A stretch of 64,000 nt of DNA. Origin: a virus. Within the stretch, counting starts at the first letter, position 1, and the number at the start of each line of letters is the position of its first letter. The notes beneath the pieces are model-generated. The model was not told the origin of the DNA, ran no database searches, and saw nothing but the letters and a program-made list of their open reading frames with translations. Shown piece by piece: positions 1,364-63,102 of the stretch. The position numbers and the translations under genes are program-made. The stretch is from positions 1-64,000 of the IMG/VR virus record IMGVR_UViG_3300050035_000086; one strand, 5' to 3'.

Positions 1364-1464
1364 TCTTAGTCCAGATAATGGACGCCCATCGAGACTCCGT
1401 TTGAGTCCGCGAAGTACAGTGGGGCCGTCGCCCCAAAACAACTAACCCCACAAAGGATAAACAC

Positions 1465-2097
1465 ATGGCATCTCAAGATACTTCTATCGGTTACGCAAAC
1501 GGATTGTTTGTTCAGTCCATCACCACTGGAACAGAAACTGCTCTCCTTGTTCCCGCAACGGCTGGAATTTTTCCCGGACTTCCCGGCCCTGATCAGCCTG
1601 CTAGCACTGGCCTAGATATCGGCGTTCCCCCGGATGTTCAGTTCGGTGTGTGGGACGGACACCCGTTCAAGGTGCTCGTAGCTGGTAAGATCAATACAGG
1701 CGCTTCGATCACGTTCCTCGCCAATCTGTATTACGTGCCCGCCGCTATCGCCACTGCCCAGACCGCCGCTACTTTGGCAAACGATACAGTTGTTGTGTCA
1801 AACGCAGCGTCTGCTGCTTTCTCTGGGGCCGGTAACTTTGTTACGGAAGCAGAGTTCTTGTGGGATTCTGTTTCTAAGAAGTTGGTTGGTTTCGTGACAG
1901 CTAGTCAGGTAAACGGCGTTAACATCGCTGCCAACTCTGGAACCGCCGGAACTAACGTGGCAACCTCTGTTGTTACAGTAACATACACCGCCGGAACGAC
2001 CCCAAATCCGTTGAACTTCATTCCTTCGTTTACCTTTGGCACGGCAAACGCGGCGAACACTGTACAGTTGACGGAGTTCACTATTACTCGCGCCTAA
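1465..2097 (+). CDS. Putative virion structural protein (beta-rich; paralog of 24794-25483)
   Basis: RBS AAAGGA, T/A/G-rich 210 aa, shared motifs with 24794 ORF (FLWDSVSKKLVG vs LIWDAVSGKLNG; NAANTV vs GAANTI). Confidence 0.6.
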   Translation: MASQDTSIGYANGLFVQSITTGTETALLVPATAGIFPGLPGPDQPASTGLDIGVPPDVQFGVWDGHPFKVLVAGKINTGASITFLANLYYVPAAIATAQTAATLANDTVVVSNAASAAFSGAGNFVTEAEFLWDSVSKKLVGFVTASQVNGVNIAANSGTAGTNVATSVVTVTYTAGTTPNPLNFIPSFTFGTANAANTVQLTEFTITRA

Positions 2098-2107
2098 TAA
2101 CAACCCA

Positions 2108-2127
2108 CGGGGGTCTTCGGACCCCCG
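2108..2127 (+). terminator. Stable cUUCGg hairpin (terminator or transcript stabiliser)
   Basis: CGGGGGTC-TTCG-GACCCCCG just after the stop of 1465-2097; no clear U-tract. Confidence 0.45.
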
Positions 2128-2139
2128 ACTGGAGACCAA

Positions 2140-2361
2140 ATGGACACCTTCATTGAAGCAGTATGCGGCGTTCTATTTGTTCTAGCGGTTCTGTTCGCGG
2201 TTGATCGGAGTCTTTGGATCAAGGAAATCGAGACCGACTTGAACAACTTTTTGGGCGATTCTTTAGCTGCTCGTGATATGGCTGAAGATTCAGTTCGAGT
2301 ACACTATCAAGCACAAGCTAGTGCTATTAAAGCACTTATCAGAAAACATTTCAAGCTGTAG
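2140..2361 (+). CDS. Small membrane-anchored hypothetical protein
   Basis: RBS GGAG, N-terminal hydrophobic helix. Confidence 0.6.
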   Translation: MDTFIEAVCGVLFVLAVLFAVDRSLWIKEIETDLNNFLGDSLAARDMAEDSVRVHYQAQASAIKALIRKHFKL

Positions 2362-2369
2362 AGGAATAC

Positions 2370-2707: not shown

Positions 2708-4144
2708 ATGAAAAAACTTCTTTTGTTTCTCTTTGTTCTCGCTCTTGCCAGTCCATTATCTGGACAAGTTCCTGTGTTTCCGCAGGCGGCTGCGACCGCC
2801 ACCAGCATCTCTGGAGGAGGGGCGGGGGCTCAGCCCTACCAAACAGCCGCTAGTACGACCTCCTTTGTCTATCCGGCAACCGACGCAAATATGCTCACGA
2901 TGGACCTAAACCGCACCGACAGCTATACGGAACGCGGCACAATCGAGTGGCCCTACAAGAACCTTTCCACGCTGGTCATCCCAAGCACGGGATTAGCGTC
3001 GATCTTCTCCAGTCCAAATGCTTCTTATTCAAACCCTACCGCCGTTACTCTCCCCGCAATTCCCATCACGATATACGGCAACAATTCGACGTGGACTCCG
3101 ACAGGTGGGCTTACCGTCGCGGCTAAGATCATTTCCTACGATTTGATCGACGGCGCGGCTGTGACATACAACTACGCGGGTACTGAGCGTAGCGAGAAGC
3201 ATGGCGGGGCATTTCTCGGAAACGTCAATCTTACTCAAGGGTATCTTCATGCGTTCGGCACGAATCTAAGCGGAAACAGCAACACTTTCACGGTAGGCGG
3301 GGCTTCGACCGCCGCGTTGCTTTATGGAGAGGCAATTACCGGAAGCCAGAAGATTACATCGGGAGGTCCGGGGGCGTTAATTGCCCTGTACAACCCAAAC
3401 ATGACTAAGTCGAGCGGCTATAACGTCGATATGACCTCTGGTGGCCAGTTGCTTTTGAGTGGCGCACTGCTGAACACGGTTGCGGGAACCGCGAACATAT
3501 ATCTTCCGACAGCCAATACGTTGTCAACTGTCCACGCAATCAGCGGCCTCATTGTTGGAACGGGAACCGGCGTCAACTGCGTAAATGGCACGACTACCTA
3601 CGTGGTCTATGGGTTTAACCTCGCTCCGATCACGAATTGCACCCTTGTTCCCGGCTACCAGGGGCCGACAGCTTTCCAAGGGGCAATATCCGTACCAGCG
3701 GCAACGGGAATCTCTAGCGTAACAACCGGAACAGCGGCTAGTGCTGGATATGTCGGGCAGGTTCTTTCCTCAAAGATTTCTAGCGGTTCGGCAGTATCCG
3801 AATCAACCGGGGCCACAGTAAACGTCACGAGCTTGACGCTTACGGCGGGCGATTGGGACGTTGAGGGTTCGGTGGTTTTCAAGCCATCAAGTGTGACTAT
3901 TCCGTCTGGATACAACGCGTGGATAGGAATCAATTCGACATCTGTCACGATTCCCTCTGATGGTACCGAAGTGGCTGTCACGCCTGGAACCGAATCTAAT
4001 CAAAGCTCTGGTTTTGGGGGATCAATTCCAAGACAGATTTATAACGTGTCAACTTCCACGACGGTTTATCTTGTTGCGCAATCCAACTTTACGGCAGGCT
4101 CTATGGGAGTTTATGGATACCTGACGGCGCGGAGAGTTCACTAA
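2708..4144 (+). CDS. Fibre/appendage-like protein with N-terminal signal-peptide-like sequence
   Basis: Likely start ATG 2708 (MKKLLLFLFVLALASPLSGQ); Ser/Thr/Gly-rich; C-terminal 'VTSLTLTAGDWDVEG...LTARRVH' fibre-tip-like domain. Confidence 0.6.
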   Translation: MKKLLLFLFVLALASPLSGQVPVFPQAAATATSISGGGAGAQPYQTAASTTSFVYPATDANMLTMDLNRTDSYTERGTIEWPYKNLSTLVIPSTGLASIFSSPNASYSNPTAVTLPAIPITIYGNNSTWTPTGGLTVAAKIISYDLIDGAAVTYNYAGTERSEKHGGAFLGNVNLTQGYLHAFGTNLSGNSNTFTVGGASTAALLYGEAITGSQKITSGGPGALIALYNPNMTKSSGYNVDMTSGGQLLLSGALLNTVAGTANIYLPTANTLSTVHAISGLIVGTGTGVNCVNGTTTYVVYGFNLAPITNCTLVPGYQGPTAFQGAISVPAATGISSVTTGTAASAGYVGQVLSSKISSGSAVSESTGATVNVTSLTLTAGDWDVEGSVVFKPSSVTIPSGYNAWIGINSTSVTIPSDGTEVAVTPGTESNQSSGFGGSIPRQIYNVSTSTTVYLVAQSNFTAGSMGVYGYLTARRVH

Positions 4145-4348: not shown

Positions 4349-4383
4349 TTTAACCCGTCCATTATCTGGACAAAGGAATAATC

Positions 4384-6249: not shown

Positions 6250-8283
6250 TTGACAGCAAACTACGATGAACTCGTTGATCAGTACCAAACAGCCGATCAG
6301 ATACCAAACAACGTGCTGTATGAGTACCTAGACGAGAATAAACAGAACATAATCAATCTCTCCCAAATAGAGAATATACCAGAATCCAAACTGGGAAGAG
6401 AAGTTCGTCGTCGTTGTGTTTTCGACATCAAGTGGTTGGCTCAGTACTTCCTGTGGGATGCTATGGCCGCTAGTGATGGCGGATTGAAACCTGTTTCCAA
6501 TAACATATTTCTCGACCCCCAGTACGATATCTTTGCTGAATTGTTTGCTAAGAAAGATCCAGCAGTTCCGATTCACAAACTCAGTCCCACCAAGACCAGA
6601 GTTTTGTTGTGGCCAAGAGGCGGAGCCAAAAGCTCGTACGATCACGTGGACACATTTCAGTGGATAATTGCTTACCCTGATGTCCGAATTTTATACCTTA
6701 CAGCAGAATCCAGTTTGTCCATTGGATTCGTCGGCGAGCTTAAAGGTTTCTTTACCCTCCGAGAAGATACTCCCACTCTGTCGAATCTGTTTTTCCCGGA
6801 ACATTGTTGCTTGGCAAAGGACATGAAAAAGGGAACAGTCTTTACGACGCCTGTATATAAGAACAAGAAAACAGGACGTAAAGAACCTACGGTTATCGCC
6901 TCATCGGTAGGAAAAACCAAGAGCGGATACCATTATGAAGTAATCAAATGTGATGACTCTGTGTCCGATAAAAACACTGAGACTGAAACCCAGTGCCAGA
7001 GTGTTTCTGAGAAGTTGTTCTTAGCCGAAAACCTCTTGATTCCGGGCGGAGATGGCTTCCCCATATTCTACATCGGAACTAGGTATCACGATCTCGACCA
7101 CTACGGCGCTCTCCTTGAGAAATATCTAGATAAAGGTGAAGTAGAAATCACCTCAGGAGTAGGCTGGAAGTTCTACCACAACAAGACCTACAGTATTGAT
7201 ATTCTGATCGGCAAAGCCTGCCAGATCAAGCCAGAGGTTGCTGAGAAACTGTCCAGAGAGGGCAGACCAGTCACCTATGCAGAAGCAGGCGAAGCTGGAT
7301 GCGATATTCTCCTCCCCAACATCATGTCGTACTCGTTCTTCATGGGCAAGTTCTCGAAGAATGAAAGAGTCACAGAGGGGCAGCTTAATCAGAATCCCCA
7401 GACTACGAGTGACGTAGAGTTCGACCGAATGTTGATGCTTCGGGCCACAGTTCCCTATCAGATGCTCCCCCGAGAAGGACCCTGCTGCCAGTTTTGGGAT
7501 TTCGCCTTTAGTCAGAAAAAAGGCAGAGACTACTCGACGGGTGCGTCCATTATCTGGACAGAAGAGGATGAACTTACCGCTAAGGGGGAGAAGACGGGGA
7601 ATAAGAAGACGGTTGGGTACGTTCGCAAGATCGTCCGAGACCGCTTCAATCACTCCACCCTCGCCCAAGCCGTAGTTGATCTTGCCGTAGAAGAGCATCC
7701 ATTTGTTATCGGAATTGAAGATGCCGCCGGGTCTCGTTTCTTGGAGCCTACAATTATTTCTACAGCACTCCGAACAAAAGATGCTCGCGTAATTGAGTTG
7801 TGCTCTCATATCGATTGGGTTACTCCGGACAACCAGATAGATGCCAAGCGGGTAAGAATGCGGTCGATGTATCCTTGGATTTCCGAGGGAAGACTCAAGT
7901 TCCTGAATGCCTGCATGGCTCCCAAAGAGTCCAATTTGGAAGTTTTCTATTCCGAATGGCAGAAATGTTTAGTAAGCCATCACCATGATGATATCCCAGA
8001 CGTTGTATCTCAGATGCCCAACCGATACGCTCCTCGGGCCACCCAAGCCATAGTCGAAAACAACGTTGAGATGTTCTCCCGCATAGATCAAATAGGCTGG
8101 AACGAACTCTTCAATGAAGATTACATGGCACAGAACGGCTCGTGGATGGACGACAACGGAAACATCATAAACCAAGAACAGCCAATTATGCCGACAGCCG
8201 ATCTATTCCAACCAGAACCAGAAGCATCAACTCAAACGCCCTATGGGATGCCAAACGTCCTCGGGGCTGGGTTTTGGGGGTAG
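6250..8283 (+). CDS. terL: Terminase large subunit
   Basis: Walker A-like PRGGAKSS, Walker B IKCDD, IGTRY coupling motif, RNase H-like nuclease WDFAFS...HDDIPD. Confidence 0.9.
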   Translation: MTANYDELVDQYQTADQIPNNVLYEYLDENKQNIINLSQIENIPESKLGREVRRRCVFDIKWLAQYFLWDAMAASDGGLKPVSNNIFLDPQYDIFAELFAKKDPAVPIHKLSPTKTRVLLWPRGGAKSSYDHVDTFQWIIAYPDVRILYLTAESSLSIGFVGELKGFFTLREDTPTLSNLFFPEHCCLAKDMKKGTVFTTPVYKNKKTGRKEPTVIASSVGKTKSGYHYEVIKCDDSVSDKNTETETQCQSVSEKLFLAENLLIPGGDGFPIFYIGTRYHDLDHYGALLEKYLDKGEVEITSGVGWKFYHNKTYSIDILIGKACQIKPEVAEKLSREGRPVTYAEAGEAGCDILLPNIMSYSFFMGKFSKNERVTEGQLNQNPQTTSDVEFDRMLMLRATVPYQMLPREGPCCQFWDFAFSQKKGRDYSTGASIIWTEEDELTAKGEKTGNKKTVGYVRKIVRDRFNHSTLAQAVVDLAVEEHPFVIGIEDAAGSRFLEPTIISTALRTKDARVIELCSHIDWVTPDNQIDAKRVRMRSMYPWISEGRLKFLNACMAPKESNLEVFYSEWQKCLVSHHHDDIPDVVSQMPNRYAPRATQAIVENNVEMFSRIDQIGWNELFNEDYMAQNGSWMDDNGNIINQEQPIMPTADLFQPEPEASTQTPYGMPNVLGAGFWG

Positions 8284-8284
8284 C

Positions 8285-8653
8285 ATGAAACTATTTGTCC
8301 AGATAATGGACGACAATGGCGAGGTCCTAGACGAATACTCATGTGACCCGTGTCAACCAAGTCGATGGAATGCTCCGACCGAGCAGAAATTTATCGGGAA
8401 GATGCCACAACAGTCATCCGACGTTGTAAATAACGGCACGTATGAGTTGTTCGGAATCACTTTCCAACCCCACCTCCGAGTGGATCGTCCGAATGGTTGG
8501 TCAACTCCCCCTCCCGACAGTTCCCCTGTCGTACTCCCCGGCTACAAGCCGTCTCCTAAACCATCCTTCCCGTGGAGCAAGTCTGCTCCGACCCCTTCTC
8601 CAAAACAAAATCCCGCAACGGGTTTCCCGCCTGCGGTAATACCAAGAGGATAA
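8285..8653 (+). CDS. Hypothetical protein, Pro-rich C-terminus
   Basis: ATG 8285 immediately after terL stop. Confidence 0.6.
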   Translation: MKLFVQIMDDNGEVLDEYSCDPCQPSRWNAPTEQKFIGKMPQQSSDVVNNGTYELFGITFQPHLRVDRPNGWSTPPPDSSPVVLPGYKPSPKPSFPWSKSAPTPSPKQNPATGFPPAVIPRG

Positions 8654-8951: not shown

Positions 8952-8979
8952 TAACTGTCCATTATCTGGATGAGGTCCG

Positions 8980-13284: not shown

Positions 13285-13313
13285 ATAATAGCACAAGTCC
13301 ATTATCTGGACAA
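13285..13313 (-). promoter_or_regulatory. Sigma70-like promoter of recombinase remnant overlapped by the 15-bp motif
   Basis: TTGTCC-17 bp-TATTAT with TG extension; motif 13297-13311 covers -35 and spacer. Confidence 0.5.
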
Positions 13314-13326: not shown

Positions 13327-15405
13327 ATGTCAGTTCTCCCTGAACCCGTAATTGATGTTCATCAAGATTTAACTCCAGATGAAGCGCGCGTATTCCTCAA
13401 TACGGGGACATGGGGCGATGACGGAGCTCGAAAACTTGCGGTACAAGATGCCGAAAGAGCCGAGTCTGACGCGCAGAGAAAAAGCTGGATAATGGCCTGG
13501 GTTTCTTCTAGGGACTTGTACGCCAGTATCTACGCCCCTAATTTTTGGCCTGGGACTTCAATCGAGGCATCTTCTGTAAATTTCTTCACCGTAGCGACAG
13601 CTGTAAATGGCATTAACCCCCAACTTCTCGCTGGTTTATTCTACGAGAATCCTCCCTTTATGGTTCAGGAAAGACCCGGAACTTCGGCACAGTGCGCCCG
13701 GGCAGTTTCTGCTCTGCTAGGATATCAACTCGAAGATATCAACTTCCGAGAAGAACTCCGTCTTGGTTTGATGAACTGTCTGCTATTTGGTACAGCCATC
13801 TTCCAGGAGGGGTGGGAAAAATATACCAAGACCCGGAAGATTGTTAAGCGAAAGAACCCGGTTATTAAGATTCCGAGCACGATTCCCGGAGCACCAGAAA
13901 CCTCAATTTCAGACGACGAGTTAGAAGTAGAAGAGATCGAAGAAGTAATCGACAGACCTACTTTTGAGCACATAGTCAATCTTCGGGAAATTCTGGTAGA
14001 CCCAGGTTTGGAAGTTCCGGAGATTCGCAAAGCTAAGTATGTTGTTCGTCGTCGCTACATGACGTGGGACGACATCGATAAGTTGCGCGACCGTGAGGGG
14101 TATGACATTCCGTCCCGCGAGAAAATGCTTGAGTTGTTTCTTCCCCCGAAGGAGCCGGTTGAATCTAATCCTCAACAGGAAGGCGGACGTAATCCTTTGT
14201 GGGACGCGCGCGCGGAATCTCCGTGGGAAGCAACTACAATCGATCCTTTCCAGCAACCTCTGGAAGTCCTCGAACGTTGGGACAACAAAACCCTAATCGT
14301 AGTGATCCAGAAAAAGGTAGTCATCTACAACGGACAGAATGCCTACGGTAAAATCCCGTTCCTGAGCATTGGATGGTGGGATCAGCCTGGAGCTTTCTGG
14401 TCCATCGGATTAGGCCGGTTGATTGGCACCGAGCAACGTGTCCAAGCTGGTATCACGAACCTGATGATGAATATTGCGAACCTGAAGCTGAATGCTCCTA
14501 TGGTTCGCGTAAAAGGAAAGTCGGTCCCGACACAAAGCATCCGAATCGGTCCTAACAAAATGATCGAAGTAGATGCCCAAGGCGATCTACAACCTCTGAA
14601 ATTCGGAGACCCGGTACAAGAAGCCAATCAGCTCTTTGCCATGTCTCAGCAGAGGGTAGATTCGGTGTCGGGGGCCAACCCTATTACGTCTCAGGGAAAC
14701 GCGGGGTCGGCTGGACACTCTAATCTCGCGCGGTCATCTGCCGGGGCCTCTCTTCTCGGACAAGGTGCGTCAAATATCATCTCCGATTGTATTGATAAAC
14801 TGGCTAATCAGGTTTTGGTGCCGTATTTGTATGACATGCAAGAGATGAACTCAATGATGCTGCCGTACAGCCAACTCGATTGGATCATGTCAGAAGAACT
14901 GAAGCATGATTATATAACAGAAGGGGGGGATCTTGTTGAGATACTGAACGCCAAGGTGAAGTTTACAGTATTAGCGGGAGCAAAAATGCAAACACGCCGA
15001 AACATGGCCCAAGGTTTGCCCATGCTTACTCAATTTCTAGCTAATCCTTCCGTTATTGAACAACTTGCCCTAGAGAACAAGAAGGTTGACGTGAACGAGA
15101 TTTGCCGGATGTGGTTTGAGGCTAGTGAATTCAAAAATCAGAACGATGTGATTATTGACATGACTCCTGAAGACCAACAGCGTCAGCAGCAGAAAAGCCA
15201 AAATGGGGCCGCTCAACAGAAGTTCCAGCAGCAGCAAGCTCTTCTTCAGCAGAAGGCTGCGGCAGCGGAGCAACTTGCTGATTCTGAAAATGTCGCGCGC
15301 GCCGCCCGGGACGTACTTCGGGAGGGCTTTAAAAAGTCCGTAGAACCGGAAATGCTTACGGGACAACCTCAAACTAGCGGATCAGGATTTGGTGGAAACC
15401 TCTAG
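13327..15405 (+). CDS. Portal protein
   Basis: 692 aa, position between terminase and scaffold/capsid, typical segments (LLFGTAIF, YGKIPF, FWSIGLG), Q-rich C-terminal helix as in podoviral portals. Confidence 0.8.
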   Translation: MSVLPEPVIDVHQDLTPDEARVFLNTGTWGDDGARKLAVQDAERAESDAQRKSWIMAWVSSRDLYASIYAPNFWPGTSIEASSVNFFTVATAVNGINPQLLAGLFYENPPFMVQERPGTSAQCARAVSALLGYQLEDINFREELRLGLMNCLLFGTAIFQEGWEKYTKTRKIVKRKNPVIKIPSTIPGAPETSISDDELEVEEIEEVIDRPTFEHIVNLREILVDPGLEVPEIRKAKYVVRRRYMTWDDIDKLRDREGYDIPSREKMLELFLPPKEPVESNPQQEGGRNPLWDARAESPWEATTIDPFQQPLEVLERWDNKTLIVVIQKKVVIYNGQNAYGKIPFLSIGWWDQPGAFWSIGLGRLIGTEQRVQAGITNLMMNIANLKLNAPMVRVKGKSVPTQSIRIGPNKMIEVDAQGDLQPLKFGDPVQEANQLFAMSQQRVDSVSGANPITSQGNAGSAGHSNLARSSAGASLLGQGASNIISDCIDKLANQVLVPYLYDMQEMNSMMLPYSQLDWIMSEELKHDYITEGGDLVEILNAKVKFTVLAGAKMQTRRNMAQGLPMLTQFLANPSVIEQLALENKKVDVNEICRMWFEASEFKNQNDVIIDMTPEDQQRQQQKSQNGAAQQKFQQQQALLQQKAAAAEQLADSENVARAARDVLREGFKKSVEPEMLTGQPQTSGSGFGGNL

Positions 15406-15441: not shown

Positions 15442-15522
15442 GTACTTGTTGTAAAAACCCACCAAAATTAAACCGTCCAGATAGTGGACTGCTCGCGTTC
15501 TGCGGATTGCAGAAGGAGAACT

Positions 15523-16399: not shown

Positions 16400-16474
16400 T
16401 GGACAATCTGCAAGATAAACTACCCCATTTTTCCTTAACCACCTACCCGTTGATATTGGATTATATCAAGAGGA

Positions 16475-26649: not shown

Positions 26650-26701
26650 TCCAGATAATGGACACAAAACCCTGATCGGCTGGATTAGCCGTGGAGAATG
26701 T

Positions 26702-30438: not shown

Positions 30439-30454
30439 CCGAAAAATCCAGATA

Positions 30455-46273: not shown

Positions 46274-46293
46274 GTGTCCATTATCTGGACCGT

Positions 46294-48357: not shown

Positions 48358-49205
48358 AGTTCGTCTAGGCTCCTTACTTTAAATAGGCTCCTTACTTTAA
48401 ACCCAGAAGCACGGGCGTGGCCCCCACCTCCGTAGAGCTTAGCAATCTCGGACACGTCTAAGCCATACTCGTCTGATCGCAAACTAAAGATAGCGGAAGT
48501 TCCATCTAGGTAGAACGTCGCCCCGAACGGCTCTCCCCGGGCCAAGATGTTTCCGGCTTCGGAGCACAGAGTATAAGGCAGGTTCGCCGTCCAGACTTCA
48601 TGACCTCCGATTTTGAACCGGAACTTGTTTTGAAGAAGCTCATTGATATCTTTGGTCTGCTTCTTCAAGATTATGTTTCCATACCCTTCTATCTCTCGCG
48701 CTTCGTGTGGATCTTCCAAAAGCTTACGGAGGAAGTCCCAGTTTTCAAAGTCGTACTCAGTTGCAAACAAGTAGGCCGAGATACCTTTGGTCTCTTCGAA
48801 GTGGAACCTCCACAGGTCTCTATCCTCTACGTAATTCACCAGCATCGGAATATCTTCTACTGGGTGAAAATAATCCCAAGCCAGACGTGCGCCGGACTTC
48901 TCCATGTCGAATTTCACAGACACGTTTTCTGGGAGATCGACTAGATCAGCTTCCGCGCTCTTGTGGTGGTCCAGGATTGTGATCGATTTTGCCTTCGCGG
49001 ACATCTCCAAAATCACAGGACGCTTGTAGGAGAAGTCAACAAACCAAACCTCTCTATCTGTTACATCCGGAGGGTCTTCCTGGTATTTTCCAGGATAGAA
49101 TTCCCAGTCCGGATGTACTTTCCAAATTGACCAAGCTGCTGTGAACCCGTCAGCGCAGGGACTATGATAAATTACTAGAGGCGTCATGTAATCCTTTCTG
49201 TCCAT
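48354..49205 (-). CDS. DHH/DHHA1 phosphoesterase
   Basis: YHSPCADG, VDFS, LDHHKS, DRDLW, GGGGHARASGF; start ATG lies in motif 49200. Confidence 0.88.
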   Translation of the reverse strand: MDRKDYMTPLVIYHSPCADGFTAAWSIWKVHPDWEFYPGKYQEDPPDVTDREVWFVDFSYKRPVILEMSAKAKSITILDHHKSAEADLVDLPENVSVKFDMEKSGARLAWDYFHPVEDIPMLVNYVEDRDLWRFHFEETKGISAYLFATEYDFENWDFLRKLLEDPHEAREIEGYGNIILKKQTKDINELLQNKFRFKIGGHEVWTANLPYTLCSEAGNILARGEPFGATFYLDGTSAIFSLRSDEYGLDVSEIAKLYGGGGHARASGFKVRSLFKVRSLDEL

Positions 49206-49213
49206 TATCTGGA

Positions 49214-50689: not shown

Positions 50690-51138
50690 TACTTAGTCTC
50701 CTTTTGAATCTCTTCCAGCATCCACAAAGCAGTCATTGTTTCCCCGTCTTGCAAACCATAAGTGTAGGTTGTAAGATCTTCCGTAGCGATGTGTCGAGTC
50801 ATATCTCGGGCCGCTCTGACTTTCAGTTTGGTAAGGATTTCGTCCGAGAGTTTTATACGGGGGTCTTCGTCCAGATAACGGACAAATTCATCAGAATATT
50901 CAGACCACGCATCTGTTACCCATGTAGTTCGAAAAAGTCCTATCAAACGAGGTTTGAACGTCCTTTTAATAACCGCTACACCAGATCGCAGGCCGCAAGT
51001 CGAACACACTTCTTCTTCGTCTGACCCGATAAACTGGTGCCACGAAACAGATTGAACGTGCCCGTTGGCACAAGCAAACCCAATTCTGTATGTTATCTCT
51101 GGATCGGGTTTAGGCGGGGAAGGCTTAAACCAACTCAT
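50689..51138 (-). CDS. Hypothetical protein
   Basis: RBS GAGGAGG; CANGH...CSTC. Confidence 0.55.
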   Translation of the reverse strand: MSWFKPSPPKPDPEITYRIGFACANGHVQSVSWHQFIGSDEEEVCSTCGLRSGVAVIKRTFKPRLIGLFRTTWVTDAWSEYSDEFVRYLDEDPRIKLSDEILTKLKVRAARDMTRHIATEDLTTYTYGLQDGETMTALWMLEEIQKETK

Positions 51139-51835: not shown

Positions 51836-52303
51836 TCATTTTGTCTCCTGTCCAGATAATGGACTTCCCTTCTGAAAGTTTTCGAGGTAGTCTGCGGCAG
51901 CACGTAGAAGTCGTGGATCGTCGCCAAACTTTTGAATCCCCGAATTTATTTGGTACGAAAGGAGCCCACGGACGCTCGCACGGAGTAGGTCTCTCTTGAC
52001 CTTTCGAATCACAAGTGATTTCTTCGCGTTGAAACCAACAAATTCAGACCCGTTATATGTTGCGACCGCTTCCCACCCCTCCTTGAGCTTGGTGGTCTCG
52101 ATCTTGACCTTCTTCCATGAGTGGTCATGGTCAACATGCAGACGCCGAGTTCCTGCGGGTTTTCCGCTTACCCAGCAAAGCCCGTTGCTCCTTCTAGCCA
52201 TCTCATCGTACTCGCGAAGAGTGATATTGTATGTCTTTTGGAGTCGGCGGTCGGCCTCCTTGTCGAGTTGTACTTTGGTCTTATGCTTTACTTTTCGTGT
52301 CAT
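51836..52303 (-). CDS. Endonuclease VII-like protein
   Basis: YNITLREYDEM...RRLHVDHDH...VRGLL; Zn-binding cysteines largely lost. Confidence 0.7.
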   Translation of the reverse strand: MTRKVKHKTKVQLDKEADRRLQKTYNITLREYDEMARRSNGLCWVSGKPAGTRRLHVDHDHSWKKVKIETTKLKEGWEAVATYNGSEFVGFNAKKSLVIRKVKRDLLRASVRGLLSYQINSGIQKFGDDPRLLRAAADYLENFQKGSPLSGQETK

Positions 52304-53221: not shown

Positions 53222-53535
53222 TGACCCTCCTGTCCATTATCTGGACTCGGCTCCGTCCAAGGTTCAACTGGTTTCCGTGTGGAAATATCCACCACCGGGG
53301 TCTGCTTGATATCGTACCCAAGCGGAAGGAAGTACATCGCCGCGTGTAGTTGGCAGCAGAAGGACTTCGTAACTCCTCCCTGGTTGAAGATTACTAGGTA
53401 CTGAGCTTCGGAAGGAGCCTGCGCTTTTCCACTTTCAACATCATCCTTACACCATTGTATCCGAAGAGCGGCGTTTTGTCCAGCTTTACATTCTGGATAA
53501 TCACAAATAACTTCGATTGTGTTTCGAATGCCCAT
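53218..53535 (-). CDS. Hypothetical Cys-containing protein
   Basis: RBS GGAGG; CDYPEC...FCCQLH. Confidence 0.55.
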   Translation of the reverse strand: MGIRNTIEVICDYPECKAGQNAALRIQWCKDDVESGKAQAPSEAQYLVIFNQGGVTKSFCCQLHAAMYFLPLGYDIKQTPVVDISTRKPVEPWTEPSPDNGQEGQ

Positions 53536-53543: not shown

Positions 53544-53927
53544 CTAATATTTCTTCCCATTAGCCTTCATCCGGTTCTCCCGCTTGTGGTCTTCGCGAGT
53601 CTTATTGTATTCCAATTTCTCCGCGTAAGCCCCACCCAGGTCCATCCCCAGTCCAGCAGCAATATCAAAGATTCGGATGACGGCGTCAGCAAGCTCTACT
53701 TCAATCATTTTCCGGTGAGGAAGGTGGTCATCCATCAAGTTCTTCCGATGTCCCTCCATCGCCTCGCTAATTTCGCTGTGGACTAGACATAGAAGTTCTC
53801 CCACATTTCGTTCGGTCGGTTTTCCAGTTTCCAAATCTACCCACCACTTTTGATTAATCTCGTGAACTTCCTGGGCGAGATCGTTTATGATCGCTGCTGC
53901 AAACTTTACTTGATAGTCTTCTGACAT
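53544..53927 (-). CDS. MazG-like NTP pyrophosphohydrolase
   Basis: LVHSEISEAMEGHRK...EVELADAVIRIFD...KLEYNKTR. Confidence 0.8.
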   Translation of the reverse strand: MSEDYQVKFAAAIINDLAQEVHEINQKWWVDLETGKPTERNVGELLCLVHSEISEAMEGHRKNLMDDHLPHRKMIEVELADAVIRIFDIAAGLGMDLGGAYAEKLEYNKTREDHKRENRMKANGKKY

Positions 53928-54439
53928 TATTCCACCTCGAAATATTTCTTCAGATTTTTGATCCCGCTATCTACTAGGTTCGCTACCTGTCTGCGGCTGA
54001 TTCCAAAATCTCCGGCGGTCTCTCGCTGTGACTTCCCGTCTACGAACACGTTGTAGATTACTCTGTACTCATCCAAAGGAAGACTATAAATAGCCCCATA
54101 CAATTCTTCGTCTGAGACCTCTGCAACCGGCTGCGGTATCTTCTCAGCTTGGTGCATAATCTTGGGCAAGGAGAGCGACACCAGCCGGGGTCCGGGATCT
54201 TCCTTGGTGCGCTGTGGGTGCTGCCCAGTTCGCCACAAGTCTGTGATCCGGCTTCGGCAAATTCGAGCGGCGTAAGCCTCTCCTTTTCCCTTGTCTATAC
54301 CTTTTTGAACGTGATACTTCTTTTCAAGCAAGGCTACGTAGCACTCCTGGCTCAGGTCTTCCCTCTGATCGGCGGGGATTTTAAGCCGCGAAAGAACTCG
54401 CTCGATTACCGATTTGTATTTAAGAACGTCAATGTCCAT
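53927..54439 (-). CDS. Sigma-70 family (ECF-like) RNA polymerase sigma factor
   Basis: REDLSQECYVALL (region 2), C-terminal HTH GKSQRETAGDFGISRRQVANL (region 4). Confidence 0.75.
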   Translation of the reverse strand: MDIDVLKYKSVIERVLSRLKIPADQREDLSQECYVALLEKKYHVQKGIDKGKGEAYAARICRSRITDLWRTGQHPQRTKEDPGPRLVSLSLPKIMHQAEKIPQPVAEVSDEELYGAIYSLPLDEYRVIYNVFVDGKSQRETAGDFGISRRQVANLVDSGIKNLKKYFEVE

Positions 54440-54440: not shown

Positions 54441-54845
54441 TTATTCCTTGGGACTCAATTTTGCTGTTTGCCATCTTCTGTCTTTGTGTGCCGCATCTGG
54501 CCCCGTTTGATGGCATGACCGGCATAGTGCCTCACAATTTGTTAAACTTACTTCCCCACCAGACCCCTTCGGGACCCTTTCGTTCATCTCACCACTTACC
54601 CAAGTGATTGTTCTTCCACACTTTTCGCACTCGAAGTTTCCAGATAATGGATTCCAACACCTACGGAATACTTGCTTACGAATTCCCCCCACTGCCTCCG
54701 CCTTGGTCATTTCTACCGTGGGGTAGTTCAACCGCTGCTTGTCTCGGAAGATACGAATTGGGAGACCGGTTTCGCCGAGTTCTACGCGGACGGTTTTAGT
54801 CATATCGATAATCCCTTTGTCCCAAGTACGTTCGGATTTCAGCAT
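54441..54845 (-). CDS. HNH-like protein
   Basis: CEKCG...NERVPKGSGG...NCEALCRSCH. Confidence 0.6.
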   Translation of the reverse strand: MLKSERTWDKGIIDMTKTVRVELGETGLPIRIFRDKQRLNYPTVEMTKAEAVGGIRKQVFRRCWNPLSGNFECEKCGRTITWVSGEMNERVPKGSGGEVSLTNCEALCRSCHQTGPDAAHKDRRWQTAKLSPKE

Positions 54846-55172: not shown

Positions 55173-55901
55173 TCAGTTTTTGACATCGCTTAGTTCTCCT
55201 CTCCAAGTTGAAACCGATTCTCGAACTGCCGCTAAGAATACCTGTTTGTGCAACTCATGCTCCGACTCGGACGTGATCTCCAGCACTTGTTTCCCCAACT
55301 TCCAGAACTCGTCTATCTCTTTTCTCTCGTCTGGCGTAGCGTAGAACCCGGGAAGCTCCAACCAAAGCCCAGAGGGAAGCTCGTGGACATGAAGAAGCTC
55401 ATTTACCTTGACCCGAAGCTGGGCTGCTGTTACTTTGGGGCGAAGAGCGTAGTCCATTATCTGGACAGTATAGCATCCGTTTCCATCACCATCTTCATTA
55501 TCCGTATCGTTGATTTCTGCGTGTACGTTTCCGTCGTTCTGGACCAGTCGTCTCAATTCATGAGCTTTAGTAATCCCAATCTCTTCCAACTTGCTCTCAG
55601 AAATATGCGGAAGCAAAACTTCAGCTACAGACAGTATAGCATACAATTGTGACCTACGTCTATCTATTTTTTCGCGAATCGTCTCCAAGTAGGAAGAAAA
55701 CCGGTCAAAACCGTAGGCTATCCAGTACTGCTGTAGCTTTACCTCCCGGAGAAGAGAACCGAGGCGGGCATAGGAATGGGAAAGTCTCTCTTCGTGGGAG
55801 CATATCTGACCGATGAGTGCATCAATTTCCTTTCCTTTTACGAGAGCGTCTTCCTGGTTTAGAGGAGGAAGGTAGGAAGGTATTGTCTGAATTTCGTTCA
55901 T
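55173..55901 (-). CDS. Hypothetical DNA-binding-type protein
   Basis: LGSLLREVK...YGFDRFSSYLE...RRSQLY...IGITKAHEL pattern of phage helical DNA-binding proteins. Confidence 0.5.
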   Translation of the reverse strand: MNEIQTIPSYLPPLNQEDALVKGKEIDALIGQICSHEERLSHSYARLGSLLREVKLQQYWIAYGFDRFSSYLETIREKIDRRRSQLYAILSVAEVLLPHISESKLEEIGITKAHELRRLVQNDGNVHAEINDTDNEDGDGNGCYTVQIMDYALRPKVTAAQLRVKVNELLHVHELPSGLWLELPGFYATPDERKEIDEFWKLGKQVLEITSESEHELHKQVFLAAVRESVSTWRGELSDVKN

Positions 55902-56980
55902 TACTTCGTCTCCTTCTTCCCCGCCATCGGCATTACCAAAGTAGTCATATTTCCGGATTCCAGACGTATCGGCTTGTTCTTGTCTACTAGACCCAAAGTA
56001 GCCTCTTCCCCCGCTTTTGCCAAGAATGCGGACAGATACTTGGCCTTAACCCTCAGATTCGAGACAGTTACCGGCTGAAACAAGGGGTCCGGGTCGATCT
56101 GTTCGTAGGGCGCTTCGTCTGAGGCGGTTGATCCTACTCCAGTATTTCTATATTGTACCACACCTTCGGCGAATTGTAAATCTATTCCTCCTTGATCTAT
56201 AGATTCGTCAATTAAAGTCTCAACCGTACGGAGAGCAGCTACCCACTCCTCCGTCTTGAATCCGAACTTGAGCTTCGAAGGAATTGCCAGAAGCCCGTCA
56301 AAATTCGGGAACGTCTGGGTCGGTTTGGAAGCGAATACGCGGATTCCTCCCGACTGGGCGTACAGGTGCGTATTGGATTCCCCGAGGGAGATCGTACCGT
56401 CCATTATCTGGACTATTGCAGCCGCCGGGAGATTCAACGTCATCTTGAATTCGAACGGGACTGAGTTGCCCACGGTCGCCACGGTAAGCACGTTCGCGTC
56501 TGTCCCCACAATTCGATAGCCGGATGGAGATTCTTCCTCGATACCCAAAGGCAGGCTCTGGAGCAGGACAACACCGCCGAACGCCGAAGCCTTATTAGGA
56601 GACGCCGAAGCAACAGCAATAGACAGGGCCTTCTTGAGATCGACAGAAGCCAGTTCCAGGACCTTGGTAGGAGGCTCGGGAATCTTGAGAGGCTTGATAT
56701 CCTGGATTTCCAATTCGATCTTCGCGCGCGCCGACTTCAGAGACAGGAGCTTCTCTTCCTTGGCGATCTCGACTTGTCCGGACATTCGACCTACGACCTG
56801 AGAAAGCTTCTTTCCGTTGACCGAGAAAGTTCCCCCTAGTCCGGATAATGGACTTTCTGAGACAACCCAAATGTCACTATCCTGGGCGCTTATGCCGTGC
56901 TCTCCGATTTGGTAGAACTCGGTACGAACCGGCGAGAACACCCTAAGACTTTTCTTTAGCTCTGTGGCGACTATGTTCAC
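55901..56980 (-). CDS. dnaN: DNA polymerase III beta sliding clamp-like protein
   Basis: 359 aa; VGTDANVL, FPNFD, KAKYLSAFL, KPIRL...LVMPM. Confidence 0.75.
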   Translation of the reverse strand: MNIVATELKKSLRVFSPVRTEFYQIGEHGISAQDSDIWVVSESPLSGLGGTFSVNGKKLSQVVGRMSGQVEIAKEEKLLSLKSARAKIELEIQDIKPLKIPEPPTKVLELASVDLKKALSIAVASASPNKASAFGGVVLLQSLPLGIEEESPSGYRIVGTDANVLTVATVGNSVPFEFKMTLNLPAAAIVQIMDGTISLGESNTHLYAQSGGIRVFASKPTQTFPNFDGLLAIPSKLKFGFKTEEWVAALRTVETLIDESIDQGGIDLQFAEGVVQYRNTGVGSTASDEAPYEQIDPDPLFQPVTVSNLRVKAKYLSAFLAKAGEEATLGLVDKNKPIRLESGNMTTLVMPMAGKKETK

Positions 56981-60330: not shown

Positions 60331-60551
60331 TCCCCTTGTATATCCCTACTCCGAAGTTGCCTCCGGAATTCGACCCAGTCTTCGTCTTCGTCGAGCTGGA
60401 CAGTAATTATCTCAGACGCTTTGTCTATAGCAGTTGGGGCGCTGAAAGTAATTCCGAAGAATTCACCCCGGCGCTCTAGGTACTCTCCTGCGAACAAGAT
60501 GAGATCGGGTAGGGGCTCGTTATTTCTCAAGCTGAATTCACTGATTAGCAT
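60321..60551 (-). CDS. Hypothetical protein
   Basis: RBS AGGAG. Confidence 0.5.
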   Translation of the reverse strand: MLISEFSLRNNEPLPDLILFAGEYLERRGEFFGITFSAPTAIDKASEIITVQLDEDEDWVEFRRQLRSRDIQGDWT

Positions 60552-60693
60552 GTCATCTCCTACACTTCCAGTTTGTATCCGTTGTTTTCGGCCCACGTTT
60601 CAAGCTGCTCTGCCGAGAACACATCGTCTGGCTCTAGGTTGTTTTGAATCCAAGACACAGAGTCATCGTTCAGCGCACTACTAAAATCAGGTC

Positions 60694-61272
60694 TCATACT
60701 TCCTCCTCTTTCCTCGGACTAACCAGAATCGCGGTTGAGTAGTCAGGCTCCCAAAGTTGAATCGACTCGTTCGCTTTATTGAACTCCGTCAATGCCGCTT
60801 CGAGTTCTTCGAGACCGTTTAGGTCTGACGTACCGGCATCTTCCCACATGTTGTCCAAAAGATTGCAAGTTACATCTTCCAAATCAACCGTAGGCAAACC
60901 GTGAGTTTTGCAGGCCCAGACATATTCAGGCTCCTGCCCCTCTTCGTACCGGTCGATGGCCTCATCTACAGACTCATAAAATTCATCGCCATCAAGAACG
61001 TGATCTCCGGTATATTCTGCCTCCGTGATCTTGGTGGCCTTCTCAAATCGGTCCCACTCTTTCTTGCTTTCCTTCAGGACCCACTCTTTGTGTTCGCATT
61101 CCTCGCAGACTTTGTAGGAGCCATAACGCTTGATTGTCTTTCCGCAAGCGCACAGACGCTCTCCGTGGCAGAAGTCCGCCTCTTCCTTCGTTCGGGCGAC
61201 TACTTTACACTCCGAACAGTAGAAGATTCCCGCAGTAGTTCCGTCTGCTTTAAAAAGCTCGATTGCTGACAT
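60694..61272 (-). CDS. Hypothetical Cys-rich/acidic protein
   Basis: RBS GAGGAGG; motif copy 61284 directly upstream. Confidence 0.6.
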   Translation of the reverse strand: MSAIELFKADGTTAGIFYCSECKVVARTKEEADFCHGERLCACGKTIKRYGSYKVCEECEHKEWVLKESKKEWDRFEKATKITEAEYTGDHVLDGDEFYESVDEAIDRYEEGQEPEYVWACKTHGLPTVDLEDVTCNLLDNMWEDAGTSDLNGLEELEAALTEFNKANESIQLWEPDYSTAILVSPRKEEEV

Positions 61273-61307
61273 TATTCCTCCTCGTCCATTATCTGGACAC
61301 AAAACAA

Positions 61308-62486
61308 TTATATCACAGCTTTGTCAGTTTCGGACAACAAATCTGCGAGAGGATCGAAGATATTTTCGTCTGCCTGCTTCATCTTCTCTCGCGCTTGCCG
61401 GTCAATCTCGGCTTCTTCTTGGAGTCGTAGGGCGGTCGCGTCTCTCAGGGTCTTGGCTTTTTCGGCTTCCTGCTTCTGCTTCCGAGCGGAGTACGCGAGG
61501 TTGTCCACTATCTGGACAAACTTTCCAGGGGCGTACGACAGGTTTTTGGTATCATTCAGGTCCTGCGTTTCGACCCAGGTTTTGAACGCCGACTTGATTT
61601 CCTCGGCGGTGAACTCTTTCAGCACTTCTGCTAACCGCGCCCGTTGCTTGTCTAAGAAGCATACAAGGCCCCCAGACGCGTAGGAAAGCTCCCGGACTAG
61701 GGAAACTACCTCTGGGTCTTTGGCGGAGGCTTGTAGAGGCGAATCTGACCTCAAACGATCCTCAGCGCTCTTCAGGTATGAGGAAATGGCACCATACGGA
61801 AAGTCGTCTCCTTGATTTTCCTGAATCCACTCTTCAAAGTCACGGGCAACTGCGCCGGTCCCGTGGGCGATACCGAGAGCCTTAACGTCGTCCCAGGTTC
61901 CTTTGTGGCCACCTGCCTTGGCTCCGTACTGCGCTGCAATTTTGGTAAGTTCGTCTTTCAGCTTCATAGTTTCTCCTTGTCCGTTATCTGGATTTTCAAA
62001 ATCTTCTTCAGAGAAAATTTCAGCATCTTGCTCTGAAATGCTCTGCTCTGTATCTGCTCTGCTCTGCTCTGCTATATGGCAAATTGTGGCAAGCTCTGGC
62101 AATTGCTTAGCATTTGCTTGTCGTTCCTTTGTTTTCTTCATTTTAGCCAAAGCTCCTGCTTTTCCTGCTCTGGCCCTCTCGGCTCGTACCGCATCGTCGT
62201 CTGTTCTCTGCTTCTCCAGCTTAGAGTTGACTAGAGAACCATCTTCTTGCTCTTCAAAGAAGACCTTGAGGGACGGCCAGCATTCAGACATAACTTCTAC
62301 TGGGCACCCACAGATGTCTGCAAGCTCCTCTATTTTTGAAGGGATCGACCCTTCACACCACTGCTCATCCAGAAGATCGCGGTAGAGACCTCGGGCTACA
62401 TAGTCCAAACGCTGAACCTTTCGGTTGGCGCGCCAGTCTCTCCACAGCCATTTGAAATAGGGCAGGGGCTCCGTATTTTTTCCCAC
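61308..62486 (-). CDS. Replication initiator protein (DUF1376/YdaU-like N-terminus)
   Basis: LPYFKWLWRDW...ARGLYRDLLDEQWCEGSIP...ELADICG...RARAGKAGA. Confidence 0.75.
   Translation of the reverse strand: MGKNTEPLPYFKWLWRDWRANRKVQRLDYVARGLYRDLLDEQWCEGSIPSKIEELADICGCPVEVMSECWPSLKVFFEEQEDGSLVNSKLEKQRTDDDAVRAERARAGKAGALAKMKKTKERQANAKQLPELATICHIAEQSRADTEQSISEQDAEIFSEEDFENPDNGQGETMKLKDELTKIAAQYGAKAGGHKGTWDDVKALGIAHGTGAVARDFEEWIQENQGDDFPYGAISSYLKSAEDRLRSDSPLQASAKDPEVVSLVRELSYASGGLVCFLDKQRARLAEVLKEFTAEEIKSAFKTWVETQDLNDTKNLSYAPGKFVQIVDNLAYSARKQKQEAEKAKTLRDATALRLQEEAEIDRQAREKMKQADENIFDPLADLLSETDKAVI
62029..62120. repeat. Short tandem repeats inside initiator gene (candidate iteron/origin region)
   Basis: (TGCTC)n run 62029-62073 and GGCAA x3 at 62078-62102. 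Confidence 0.45.
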
Positions 62487-62574
62487 AGATCGTCCCTCCC
62501 ATCGTAAAACGTTATTTCCAGTCGTAAAACAGTATTATACTACCTGTTTCATGGGAATCCATTATCCGGACAGC

Positions 62575-63102
62575 TTAAAATTCAAGCAGAGACCCGTAGG
62601 GAACGTACAAAGGGTGCCAAGGTCTTCCCTCGTTCGTCTTTTTCAGGCACCACAGTTTCCGATTTAGCAAAGCCGTAGTTTCTCGGACTCGGCGAATTAG
62701 GAACGTCTCGTTCTTGAAAGTTGATCCCCAGGCGGCTACTACGGTCTCCTCTGGTGGAATCTCTCGAACGTAGGAGTCATTCAGAGGGCCAACCACGTCC
62801 AGGCAGTCCCCATAATAGGCTTTTTGCAAATCCTTTGGGTTGGTTGCTCGGAATGCGAACAGGTTGATAACCCGAATAGCATTGTATCCGTTGAGTTTAG
62901 CAAATCCGACACACTTTCTAATGGTCGGATCATCTTTGTCTGCATCGGCTGTGCTTGGGTTCAACATTACGAAATTCAGCACCTGTCGTGGATCAAACAC
63001 GTCGTCCGGCCACTCTCGGTAAAGGGTATATCGGTACCTTCCGTCTTCGCTTATTACAGCTTCCTTGTATGTTTCCATTATCTGGACCTTTTTGCCGGAC
63101 AT
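62575..63102 (-). CDS. DUF1643 family protein
   Basis: YRYTLYREW, FVMLNPSTAD, DDPTIRKC, NLFAFRATNP, VAAWG, PWHPLY. Confidence 0.85.
   Translation of the reverse strand: MSGKKVQIMETYKEAVISEDGRYRYTLYREWPDDVFDPRQVLNFVMLNPSTADADKDDPTIRKCVGFAKLNGYNAIRVINLFAFRATNPKDLQKAYYGDCLDVVGPLNDSYVREIPPEETVVAAWGSTFKNETFLIRRVRETTALLNRKLWCLKKTNEGRPWHPLYVPYGSLLEF

Follow-up and report, generated by a model that had tools for sequence, protein, structure and literature searches.

An evenly spaced 15-bp dyad word across an uncultured phage genome and its relatives, and a candidate phage-encoded protein that may read it

The 64,000-nucleotide stretch analyzed here (the "window") is the first 64 kb of the 92,952-bp IMG/VR virus record IMGVR_UViG_3300050035_000086 (G000; estimated completeness, 86%). 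Its subject is a 15-bp quasi-palindromic word, GTCCAGATAATGGAC, scattered over genes and gaps, together with a 242-amino-acid (242-aa) core protein encoded on the − strand at 55173..55901 that may read this word. The genome is composed of two convergent arms, with the structural genes on the + strand up to 46.2 kb and the replication and early genes on the − strand from 46.3 kb. The structural arm includes the large terminase gene (6250..8283, +) and an SU10-type portal gene (13327..15405, +). The − strand arm encodes a small sigma factor that comprises regions 2 and 4 (53927..54439), a sliding clamp, a primase-helicase, a primosomal protein, a clamp loader, a family A polymerase, RecT, nucleases, RtcB, and a tyrosine recombinase (record positions 88479..89603, outside the window). 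The nucleases of the record include a PD-(D/E)XK nuclease, an endonuclease VII, and an SbcD-like exonuclease, and a 120-aa HNH protein (54441..54803) is encoded by a core gene of the whole group. No immunity repressor was identified in the record. Relative G009 has direct terminal repeats, and the gene content, with its own replisome, tRNAs, introns, and homing endonucleases, looks virulent. Neither megablast nor tblastn found a cultured relative among the GenBank phages.

The window contains 17 exact copies of the word, all of them at the positions where an earlier note on this DNA, made from the letters alone, had placed them, and not a single copy appeared in any of 100 dinucleotide-preserving shuffles. 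The same note had counted 12 copies with one mismatch, which is correct, and 7 with two mismatches, of which there are 8. The resulting 37 copies with up to two mismatches compare with 0.09 expected, so that the array is indeed enriched over background, and the weaker copies named in the note at 20307, 22196, 25647, 38497, and 60307 exist as 3-mismatch copies. Over the whole record, 24 copies were exact; the count rises to 40 when one mismatch is allowed and to 59 when two are allowed, or about one site per 1.6 kb. As the note had seen, each arm contains copies in both orientations. With respect to transcription, 38 of the 59 copies are sense and 21 antisense according to our own rough gene calls, with a sense-to-antisense ratio of 22:6 for intergenic and edge copies and of 16:15 for in-gene copies. 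In or at the edge of intergenic gaps are 28 of the 59, and 31 are in-gene, in a DNA that is 86 to 92% coding, depending on the gene-call set; the small gaps account for just 10 to 14% of it, approximately. For comparison, G000 and 15 relatives (G001 to G009, G011 to G015, and the L262 contig) were read, either whole or as a stretch of 14 to 20 kb.

The individual copies are given here by window position and strand; they are exact unless a mismatch number is added, and their gene context comes partly from rough gene calls. Nine tRNA genes are clustered at the left end of the window (173..1202, Rfam), and the first copy (1369..1383, +) is intergenic, between this cluster and the open reading frame (ORF) 1465-2097. 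The following copies are located within ORF 2708-4144 (2751..2765, −), in the gap before the start at 4384, where the copy fills the space up to 12 nt from this start and is itself identical in G001 (4357..4371, −), within the large terminase gene (7545..7559, −; peptide ASIIWT), within ORF 8243-8653 (8297..8311, +; VQIMD), and in a gap 8 nt before the start at 8980 (8957..8971, −, one mismatch). One copy lies 15 nt before the portal gene start with a CATAAT hexamer 7 nt upstream (13297..13311, −), and another is intergenic after the portal gene (15475..15489, +, one mismatch). In some copies, the TAA of the motif doubles as a stop codon, for instance that of ORF 16070-16399 (16390..16404, +). 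The capsid-gene region harbors two group I introns (18799-18966 and 19921-20097, Rfam gathering score), with three 1-mismatch copies inside or beside them: one inside the first intron (18917..18931, −) and two in the intron-bearing region (19821..19835, +; 20129..20143, +). Further along the + strand arm are a copy at a gene boundary (23051..23065, +, two mismatches), one that reads GTCCGAATAATGGAC, the main variant of G002 and G003 (23544..23558, +, two mismatches), one that abuts the stop of ORF 25954-26649 (26649..26663, +), and one identical in G001 (30446..30460, +, one mismatch). These are followed by a copy within ORF 30835-34494 (33980..33994, +, two mismatches), one with both outer bases changed to A...T (36920..36934, +, two mismatches), one within ORF 37255-38148 (37326..37340, −, one mismatch), two within the ORF for a 1696-aa protein (40403..40417, +, RPDNGQ, with an own variant of G002 at the same codons; 41690..41704, +), and one at the 5' end of ORF 45296-46225 (45312..45326, −, one mismatch).

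The gap between the two convergent arms contains an exact copy (46276..46290, −). In the arm beyond it, copies are located within ORF 47182-47595 (47236..47250, +, two mismatches; VHYSD), in the gap between ORFs 49214-50689 and 48354-49187, which is filled up to 12 nt from the start (49200..49214, −), within ORF 50689-51138, where G001 has a perfect copy (50869..50883, +, one mismatch), at the 3' end of the endonuclease VII gene (51850..51864, +) and of ORF 53218-53535 (53232..53246, −), both 10 nt before the next start, and within the core HNH gene (54638..54652, +, two mismatches). The gene of the candidate binder itself carries a copy (55452..55466, −; VQIMD) that is kept in G001 to G004 and G006, in each case as the own variant of the genome, and the sliding-clamp gene carries two, the first of them kept in six genomes (56399..56413, −, VQIMD; 56839..56853, +, one mismatch). 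The copy at 61284..61298 (−) has TGTGATATAAT 8 nt upstream and, on its other side, the ribosome-binding site and the start of ORF 60694-61272. The primosomal-protein gene contains a copy kept in G001 and G002 (61503..61517, −, one mismatch) and a second one (61979..61993, −, two mismatches). The last two copies are intergenic (62557..62571, −, two mismatches) or provide with their own ATG the start codon of ORF 62575-63078 (63073..63087, −, one mismatch).

Copies in gaps often occupy all of the space from a stop codon to the next ribosome-binding site. When six genomes are combined, a start codon follows 8 to 14 nt after the end of 24 sense and 16 antisense copies, and the ATG of the motif is the start codon in 12 copies, as in that at 63073. 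A start codon is within 40 nt of just about 40% of the copies, in both orientations, and gap copies adjoin the upstream stop codon about as often as the next start. For this last reason, we read the nearness to ribosome-binding sites as a by-product of the tiny gaps and not as a translation signal. The element is a stand-alone unit of about 19 bp. Its flanks have mirror-symmetric preferences, with a pyrimidine at −2 and a purine at +17, a base other than G at −1, and a base other than C at +16. In none of the classes of sites is anything further conserved up to a distance of 45 nt. This indicates that the site is not one half of a two-part promoter. The position pair −1/+16 is depleted of complementarity, with 58 Watson-Crick pairs versus 82.5 expected, and an extended hairpin was rejected on this basis. 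In nine of ten genomes, the sites are spaced more evenly than random (coefficient of variation, 0.47 to 0.80 versus about 0.97; P < 0.05 in six).

The resemblance of GATAAT to the consensus −10 hexamer, that of the motif end TGGACA to a −35 hexamer, and the small phage sigma factor with its regions 2 and 4 would agree with a promoter element, either −10-like or a single-element promoter for this sigma factor. Against this, the orientation is mixed and flips at fixed positions, many copies end 8 to 14 nt before a start codon, and no partner element is found at a fixed distance within 45 nt. Moreover, relatives with GAAAA, GGTAA, or TTAA centers keep the array without any −10-like hexamer. A promoter function is considered very unlikely. 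A sigma-70-type promoter beside the sites was also considered and discarded, as a good −10 hexamer ending 6 to 9 nt upstream accompanies just about 3% of the sites, for example, those at 13297, 61284, and record position 78292.

An RNA reader would need to see the word as a hairpin with a 5-bp stem and a 5-nt loop, similar in geometry to boxB, positioned 5' of ribosome-binding sites and controlling mRNA stability, processing, or translation. Both orientations can fold, albeit weakly, with −5.5 and −4.6 kcal/mol, and the copies ending shortly before start codons or supplying the ATG would be suitably placed. At position 5, opposite an invariant T, only A or G occurs, and the sense strand can therefore always form an A-U or G-U pair; the G5 variants lean toward sense (100:45 versus 69:59, P = 0.013, confounded by genome), as a G-U pair in RNA would predict. 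On the other hand, about 40% of the copies are antisense, in-gene copies are distributed 16:15, and the orientation flips at fixed codons. The stem never extends, the next pair being the one depleted of complementarity, and the variants of the relatives fold with only −3.4 and −2.8 kcal/mol. Compensatory double changes at pair 1-15 are not in excess, with 2 A-T seen versus about 1 expected, numbers too small to judge by. The loop is conserved in either orientation and would therefore not be the same sequence to an RNA reader; the main loop of G002 and G003 is AAUAA and not GNRA-like, so that the boxB or nut hairpin matches in geometry and not in these respects. The position close to ribosome-binding sites is explained by the tiny gaps, and we consider an RNA hairpin quite unlikely to be what is selected.

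Selection on the word itself is visible where sites can be aligned. In 15 sites alignable with G001 over at least 30 nt on each side, the motif columns differ by 8.9% compared to 17.5% in the 30-nt flanks (P = 0.001). In-gene copies occupy aligned codons with a length difference of 0 and were made by base substitutions, some of which alter amino acids. The terminase codons, for instance, read ASIIWT with a site in G000 and G001 and SSVMWG or SSVMWS without a site in G002, G003, and G005. In the clamp and in the 242-aa protein, most genomes have VQIMD, and G006, the consensus of which ends with GGAA, has VQIME or VQLME, a change of D to E. At two codon positions, 37326 (in G003) and record position 79216 (in G002), the orientation is flipped between relatives. 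Because of the in-gene substitutions, the orientation flips, the symmetric but noncomplementary flanks, the even spacing, and the weak hairpins, these data point to a reader that sees double-stranded DNA with 2-fold symmetry, and they suggest that selection favors sites along the entire chromosome. The earlier note had assumed a dimeric protein and genome-wide selection. The substitutions, the flips, the symmetric flanks, and, as described below, a mirror-fashion change of the outer bases and a perfect palindrome bear out selection and symmetry, while the binding of a protein is what we infer from them.

Two other explanations rely on the exchange of DNA instead. The copies could be a tiny mobile or recombination-linker element, comparable to the promoter-stem-loop cassettes of T4-type phages or to bacterial repetitive extragenic palindromic (REP) elements, given the positions at gene boundaries, the homology blocks that end at some copies, and a length of 15 bp that keeps reading frames. 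An origin by insertion was rejected, however, since in-gene copies are in aligned codons without a change in length, which also separates them from REP and miniature mobile elements. Target duplications and extended conserved flanks were not found either, nor was there a significant link to synteny breaks, and a mobile element is hardly likely. Alternatively, the word could be cut or nicked by the core HNH endonuclease or another phage nuclease and provide evenly placed entry points for recombination-dependent replication or exchange. The HNH gene belongs to the core of the group, the phage encodes RecT and the three nucleases mentioned above, and several blocks of homology to G001 have a copy exactly at one of their boundaries. 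Copies are frequent at the ends of short alignments with G001, which had suggested mosaic junctions, but the ends of whole-genome high-scoring segment pairs were enriched at copies only for the pair G000/G001. The association with gene-order breaks was not significant once gene boundaries were controlled for (odds ratios, 0.6 to 6.1; all P > 0.09). Nothing ties the HNH protein to the sequence of the word. The sole HNH column changed in both genomes with an altered outer base (see below) is a cysteine. We regard a nuclease site as improbable.

The exact word is repeated many times in other IMG/VR contigs, which are relatives with 65 to 82% nucleotide identity over shared genes. A search for relatives based on the portal protein yielded 80 loci, and all those with at least 66% portal identity carry the array with 1 to 6 copies of a loose pattern per 10 kb. 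Some version of the array is present in 14 of the 16 related records (G000 included), which answers the question of the earlier note about related phages, and the array-bearing relatives range from 47 to 90% in portal identity and from 40 to 60% in G+C content. Over ten genomes, the density is 0.17 to 0.67 sites per kb, and in nine of them, it is 0.35 to 0.67. The versions seen are GTCC-RRN-TAATGGAC; tTTCCAGATAATGGAAa, with symmetrically changed outer bases; aTTCCATTAATGGAAt, a perfect 14-bp palindrome; and TGTCCGGAAAATGGACA. By genome, G000 and G001 use GTCCAGATAATGGAC, G002 and G003 GTCCGAATAATGGAC, G004 GTCCGGATAATGGAC, G005 GTCCRGGTAATGGAC, and G006 TTCCAGATAATGGAA, in which both outer bases are changed in mirror fashion. 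G007 (43% G+C) has the perfect 14-bp palindrome, TTCCATTAATGGAA, in 31 copies, G008 and G009 (40 to 45% G+C) have TGTCCGGAAAATGGACA, and G011, G014, and G015 have looser GTCC-N7-GGAC forms. The L262 contig contains GTTCAC-N3-GTGAAC with 9 copies in 14 kb. No array was detected in the fragments G012 and G013, and TTGTCAA-N-TTGACAA, present in 4 copies in 20 kb of the L266 contig, was not counted as an array. The sole relative found in a genome collection, L268 (JAOAPI010000069.1), is a 50.7-kb contig binned with a metagenome-assembled genome of "Candidatus Sulfotelmatobacter" (Acidobacteriota) and has a portal that is 48% identical. This binning is a weak hint at an acidobacterial host group; the 22 kb read of L268 contained no array.

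The non-structural core genes that the majority of the distant relatives also possess encode a 123-aa protein, the 120-aa HNH protein, the 242-aa protein, the clamp, the primase-helicase, the primosomal protein, the clamp loader, and the polymerase. The 242-aa protein was the first candidate named in the earlier note and is also the best one here, on account of its core-gene status, its predicted fold, and its covariation with the word. It has no Pfam, PHROG, or PDB sequence match. Loose Pfam thresholds gave just weak SAM_2 matches at residues 95 to 120, and PDB sequence profiles gave spurious TPR-repeat matches only. Its family is large, with 444 clusters at an E value of ≤0.001 in a library of 50% identity, and includes distant homologues of about 30% identity in the L262/L263 and L266/L267 phage contigs. 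An AlphaFold model from an alignment of 129 sequences reached a predicted local distance difference test (pLDDT) value of 92 and a predicted template modeling score of 0.71; a model from 5 sequences (pLDDT, 49) was unusable. In the former, residues 36 to 175, approximately, are modeled as a ParB/Noc-type DNA-binding domain and residues 190 to 241 as a long helical hairpin, which is possibly a dimerization domain.

Plain Foldseek against the PDB gave no match to the model at an E value of ≤0.001. A structure search independent of Foldseek had the DNA-binding domains of ParB, KorB, SopB, Spo0J, and StbA among its best rows, with Z scores of 4.0 to 5.5. In a second-look alignment, the top seven rows were all ParB or Noc entries (Z, 6.4 to 7.1), each covering about residues 36 to 175 of the model. 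Two Spo0J entries came next (Z, 5.5), tied with an unrelated RbcL-Raf1 chain; other unrelated rows started at a Z of 4.2, and 16 of the top 20 rows were ParB-family domains. The best matches were ParB of Myxococcus xanthus (7bnr; Z, 7.1; 101 residues) and of Bacillus subtilis (Z, 7.0), followed closely by the Noc complex with its binding site (7ol9; Z, 7.0) and by the Noc domain (6y93), of which 103 of the 105 residues were covered at a Z of 6.7. Taken together, the domains of ParB, Noc, Spo0J, SopB, and VirB match residues 36 to 175 at Z scores of 5.0 to 7.1 over about 100 residues, without any sequence-profile match. In a viral structure library, the matches were uncharacterized phage proteins and DUF3102 proteins, in agreement with a weak lead from a language model. 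A ParB/Noc-type fold is thus probable from the model, albeit not certain. The N-terminal ParB domain that binds cytidine triphosphate (CTP), PF02195, had no match at an E value of ≤1 in G000 or in five relatives (G002, G006, G008, G009, and G010; completeness of at least 98% for three of these five), and the control genomes were positive. Consequently, the 242-aa protein is placed outside of the ParB family of CTP clamps, whatever the type of its DNA-binding domain.

The putative recognition helix, residues 83 to 96 of the 242-aa orthologues, opens with R or K ahead of the motif S-Q-x-Y. Among the 14 genomes with a TCC-type site, S84 and Y87 do not vary, and 13 retain Q85. Residue 83 is R in every genome with GTCC...GGAC and K in both genomes with TTCC...GGAA, G006 and G007. 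In the protein tree, G006 belongs to the clade of G000 to G004 (support, 100/99) and G007 groups with G008 (100/97). Since both lineages are independent in this tree, the change from R to K and that from G to T coincided twice. The family-conserved positions changed in all of L262, L266, and G012, where the dominant palindrome is another one or is absent, are S84 and E115 only. A switch between R and K that tracks the outer base is suggestive of a link between the 242-aa protein and the site and does not prove it.

This covariation also bears on a reader from the host, a nucleoid-associated protein or global regulator, that the phage might exploit or titrate. The core TCC...GGA of the half-sites is stable across many phages, and one relative has the candidate protein without an array, as may be expected in such a case. 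Nevertheless, the word is kept in phages of 40 to 60% G+C, which probably have different hosts, and its lineage-specific changes in the outer base, in the 14- or 15-bp spacing, and in the center fit a co-evolving reader encoded by the phage. The word changes also follow a residue of a phage core protein, and a host protein appears unlikely.

The explanation we favor, and judge somewhat more probable than all others together, is that the word is the docking site of a phage-encoded protein with 2-fold symmetry that would bind double-stranded DNA. Throughout the chromosome, selection would maintain about one such site every 1.6 kb, whether in gaps, genes, or introns and in either orientation. The likeliest binder would be the 242-aa protein, with its central helix-turn-helix domain of the ParB/Noc type and without a CTP-binding N-terminal domain, and the array would mark, organize, or globally silence the whole phage chromosome rather than act as a set of operators of individual promoters. 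A chromosome-wide role is preferred over operators because the sites are evenly spread, free in orientation, and without a fixed relation to promoters. Several observations disagree with this explanation or leave it incomplete. The fold match is middling, with a Z of about 7 and 10 to 14% identity, and a Z below 8 can represent a common arrangement; sequence profiles of the 242-aa protein reveal no ParB, KorB, or helix-turn-helix family. The covariation of R and K comprises two events, and other core proteins also have 0 to 2 columns changed in both TTCC genomes. Because several core proteins have such columns, these do not discriminate by themselves, and divergent phages differ in everything. 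G012 possesses a homologue of the 242-aa protein, with an altered S-Q-x-Y motif, but no detectable array. The center of the site is asymmetric, TAATGGAC being almost invariant and the left half tolerating R-R-N, which a simple symmetric dimer leaves unexplained. The pairing always possible at position 5 and the lean of the G5 variants, described above for the hairpin, belong to the same side of the balance.

Some features of the record are worth reporting in their own right. Adjoining ORFs at 46863-47201 and 47182-47595 encode the N-terminal domain of a MazZ-like dATP/dGTP diphosphohydrolase (PF18909; E value, 1.9e-8) and a protein with a weak match to nucleoside 2-deoxyribosyltransferase, a pair that could be a sign of a modified base in the DNA of the phage. 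The SbcD/Mre11-like exonuclease encoded at 49214-50689 has an extra, helix-turn-helix-like N-terminal stretch of about 160 residues and is about 110 residues longer than its orthologues in G002 and G004. A 395-aa protein (57266-58453) contains several HNH or endonuclease VII-like segments, and the PHROGs matched by its C-terminal part carry the annotation Srd anti-sigma factor or sigma-70 decoy. A UvrD-type helicase is split over two ORFs, with the N-terminal domains at record positions 67368-68039 and the C-terminal domain at 70204-71172; an HNH endonuclease gene (record positions 69296-69847) and small ORFs are located between the two pieces. At record positions 71848-73852, the gene for the RtcB RNA ligase is directly followed by one for a NUMOD3/DUF559-type endonuclease. 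The 7-mer GGCTGCG/CGCAGCC is enriched in G000 with 32 copies versus 12.7 expected under a maximal-order Markov model and is unrelated to the 15-bp site.

A search of a literature library with the exact 15-bp sequence gave unrelated matches only. The earlier note had proposed an undescribed system, and this goes too far, since Cluster O mycobacteriophages contain repeats of the same kind, and KorB with its OB sites and Noc with its binding sites (NBS) are known systems of dispersed palindromes whose readers have a ParB fold. The Cluster O repeats are 17-bp dyads, TGTTCGG-NNN-CCGAACA, with 34 copies in phage Corndog, for which the authors predict a dimeric DNA-binding protein and, in their account of the repeats, assign no function (PMC4351075). 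As described there, the two arrays share more than 30 copies over the genome (about 40% of the Cluster O copies are intergenic and the rest near gene starts or in genes), a higher density in the non-structural arm, an asymmetric center (TTT/AAA in Cluster O), and the lack of a meaningful orientation with respect to transcription. The sequence, the host group, and the phage lineage are different, and so is the architecture, with an invariant 7-bp stem in Cluster O and a stem of 4 to 5 bp plus a conserved asymmetric center here. No binder is proposed in that account, whereas the present array comes with a candidate based on fold and covariation and with a word that was followed across a large uncultured family. 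With a dyad word present 59 times in 93 kb, between and within genes, in mixed orientation, and in 14 of 16 related records, the array is in every descriptive respect most like the Cluster O repeats, which are the closest published analogue.

Plasmid RK2 of the IncP group carries 12 OB sites. They are read by KorB, a sliding clamp dependent on CTP that has a ParB N-terminal domain and works together with KorA (PMC11790492). On RK2 as in the phage, a palindrome is repeated around a mobile replicon, with some sites far from promoters. KorB silences globally, as the phage array may do, and is a dimeric reader with a DNA-binding domain of the ParB type, as the 242-aa protein may be; in contrast, no ParB N-terminal domain was detected in the phage or in five relatives, the density of sites is several times higher, and half of them are in-gene. 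Noc reads a 14-bp palindrome, ATTTCCCGGGAAAT, at about 70 places and in this way marks the whole chromosome of B. subtilis instead of single promoters. Noc structures are among the best matches to the central domain of the candidate (7ol9 and 6y93), but the ParB N-terminal domain and the membrane-targeting helix of Noc were not seen here, and Noc acts in cell division. Proteins of the ParB, KorB, and Noc family bind palindromes of 13 to 16 bp as dimers, and the phage sites are palindromes of 14 or 15 bp. Stoperators of Cluster A phages, read by the repressor of the L5 gp71 type, resemble the array in their frequency of about one site per 1.5 to 2 kb, their location in tiny gaps or overlapping starts and stops, and, if the 242-aa protein is the reader, the co-evolution of site and reader between lineages (PMC9283540). 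According to that report and to the one on Cluster O, a stoperator is not symmetric, is bound by a monomer, and follows the direction of transcription (PMC9283540; PMC4351075). The word described here has dyad symmetry, as evident from the symmetric flanks and the perfect palindrome of G007, is free in orientation, and belongs to a phage with a tyrosine recombinase gene but an apparently virulent gene content. The start-associated sequences of Cluster K are linked to starts in one orientation, unlike the present copies with their start codon within 40 nt in about 40% of the cases and in both orientations. In the predicted fold of the reader and the scattered palindromes, the system would thus be most like Noc/NBS or KorB/OB, and in density and placement, most like stoperators.

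This kind of array is therefore already known, and the one described here is a new version of it with an unusually testable candidate reader. Dispersed palindromes in phages have been described since at least 2015, for Cluster O, without a reader or a function. The present family supplies many diverged genomes, across which successive changes of the word can be followed in the outer base, the spacing, and the center, together with a single core protein whose predicted fold and one residue track these changes, which results in a protein-DNA pair that can be tested directly. The array would shape proteins strongly, as the same five-codon word is forced into the terminase, clamp, polymerase, and helicase genes. 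A more general proposal, which we put forward tentatively and ourselves consider doubtful, is that a large phage protein family (at least 444 clusters at 50% identity; DUF3102-like; without a Pfam match) may possess the DNA-binding domain of the ParB fold only, without a CTP switch, and may coat or mark the chromosome by way of evenly placed palindromes, with a code readable from one residue of the recognition helix. Under this proposal, probably virulent phages would encode their own system to label or organize the chromosome, which may serve to discriminate their own from host DNA, to compact or compartmentalize replicating DNA, or to shut down genes globally. If this were confirmed, a ParB-like DNA-binding module without a CTP clamp would be able to address a whole phage chromosome, and a large family of "hypothetical" proteins would gain a function.

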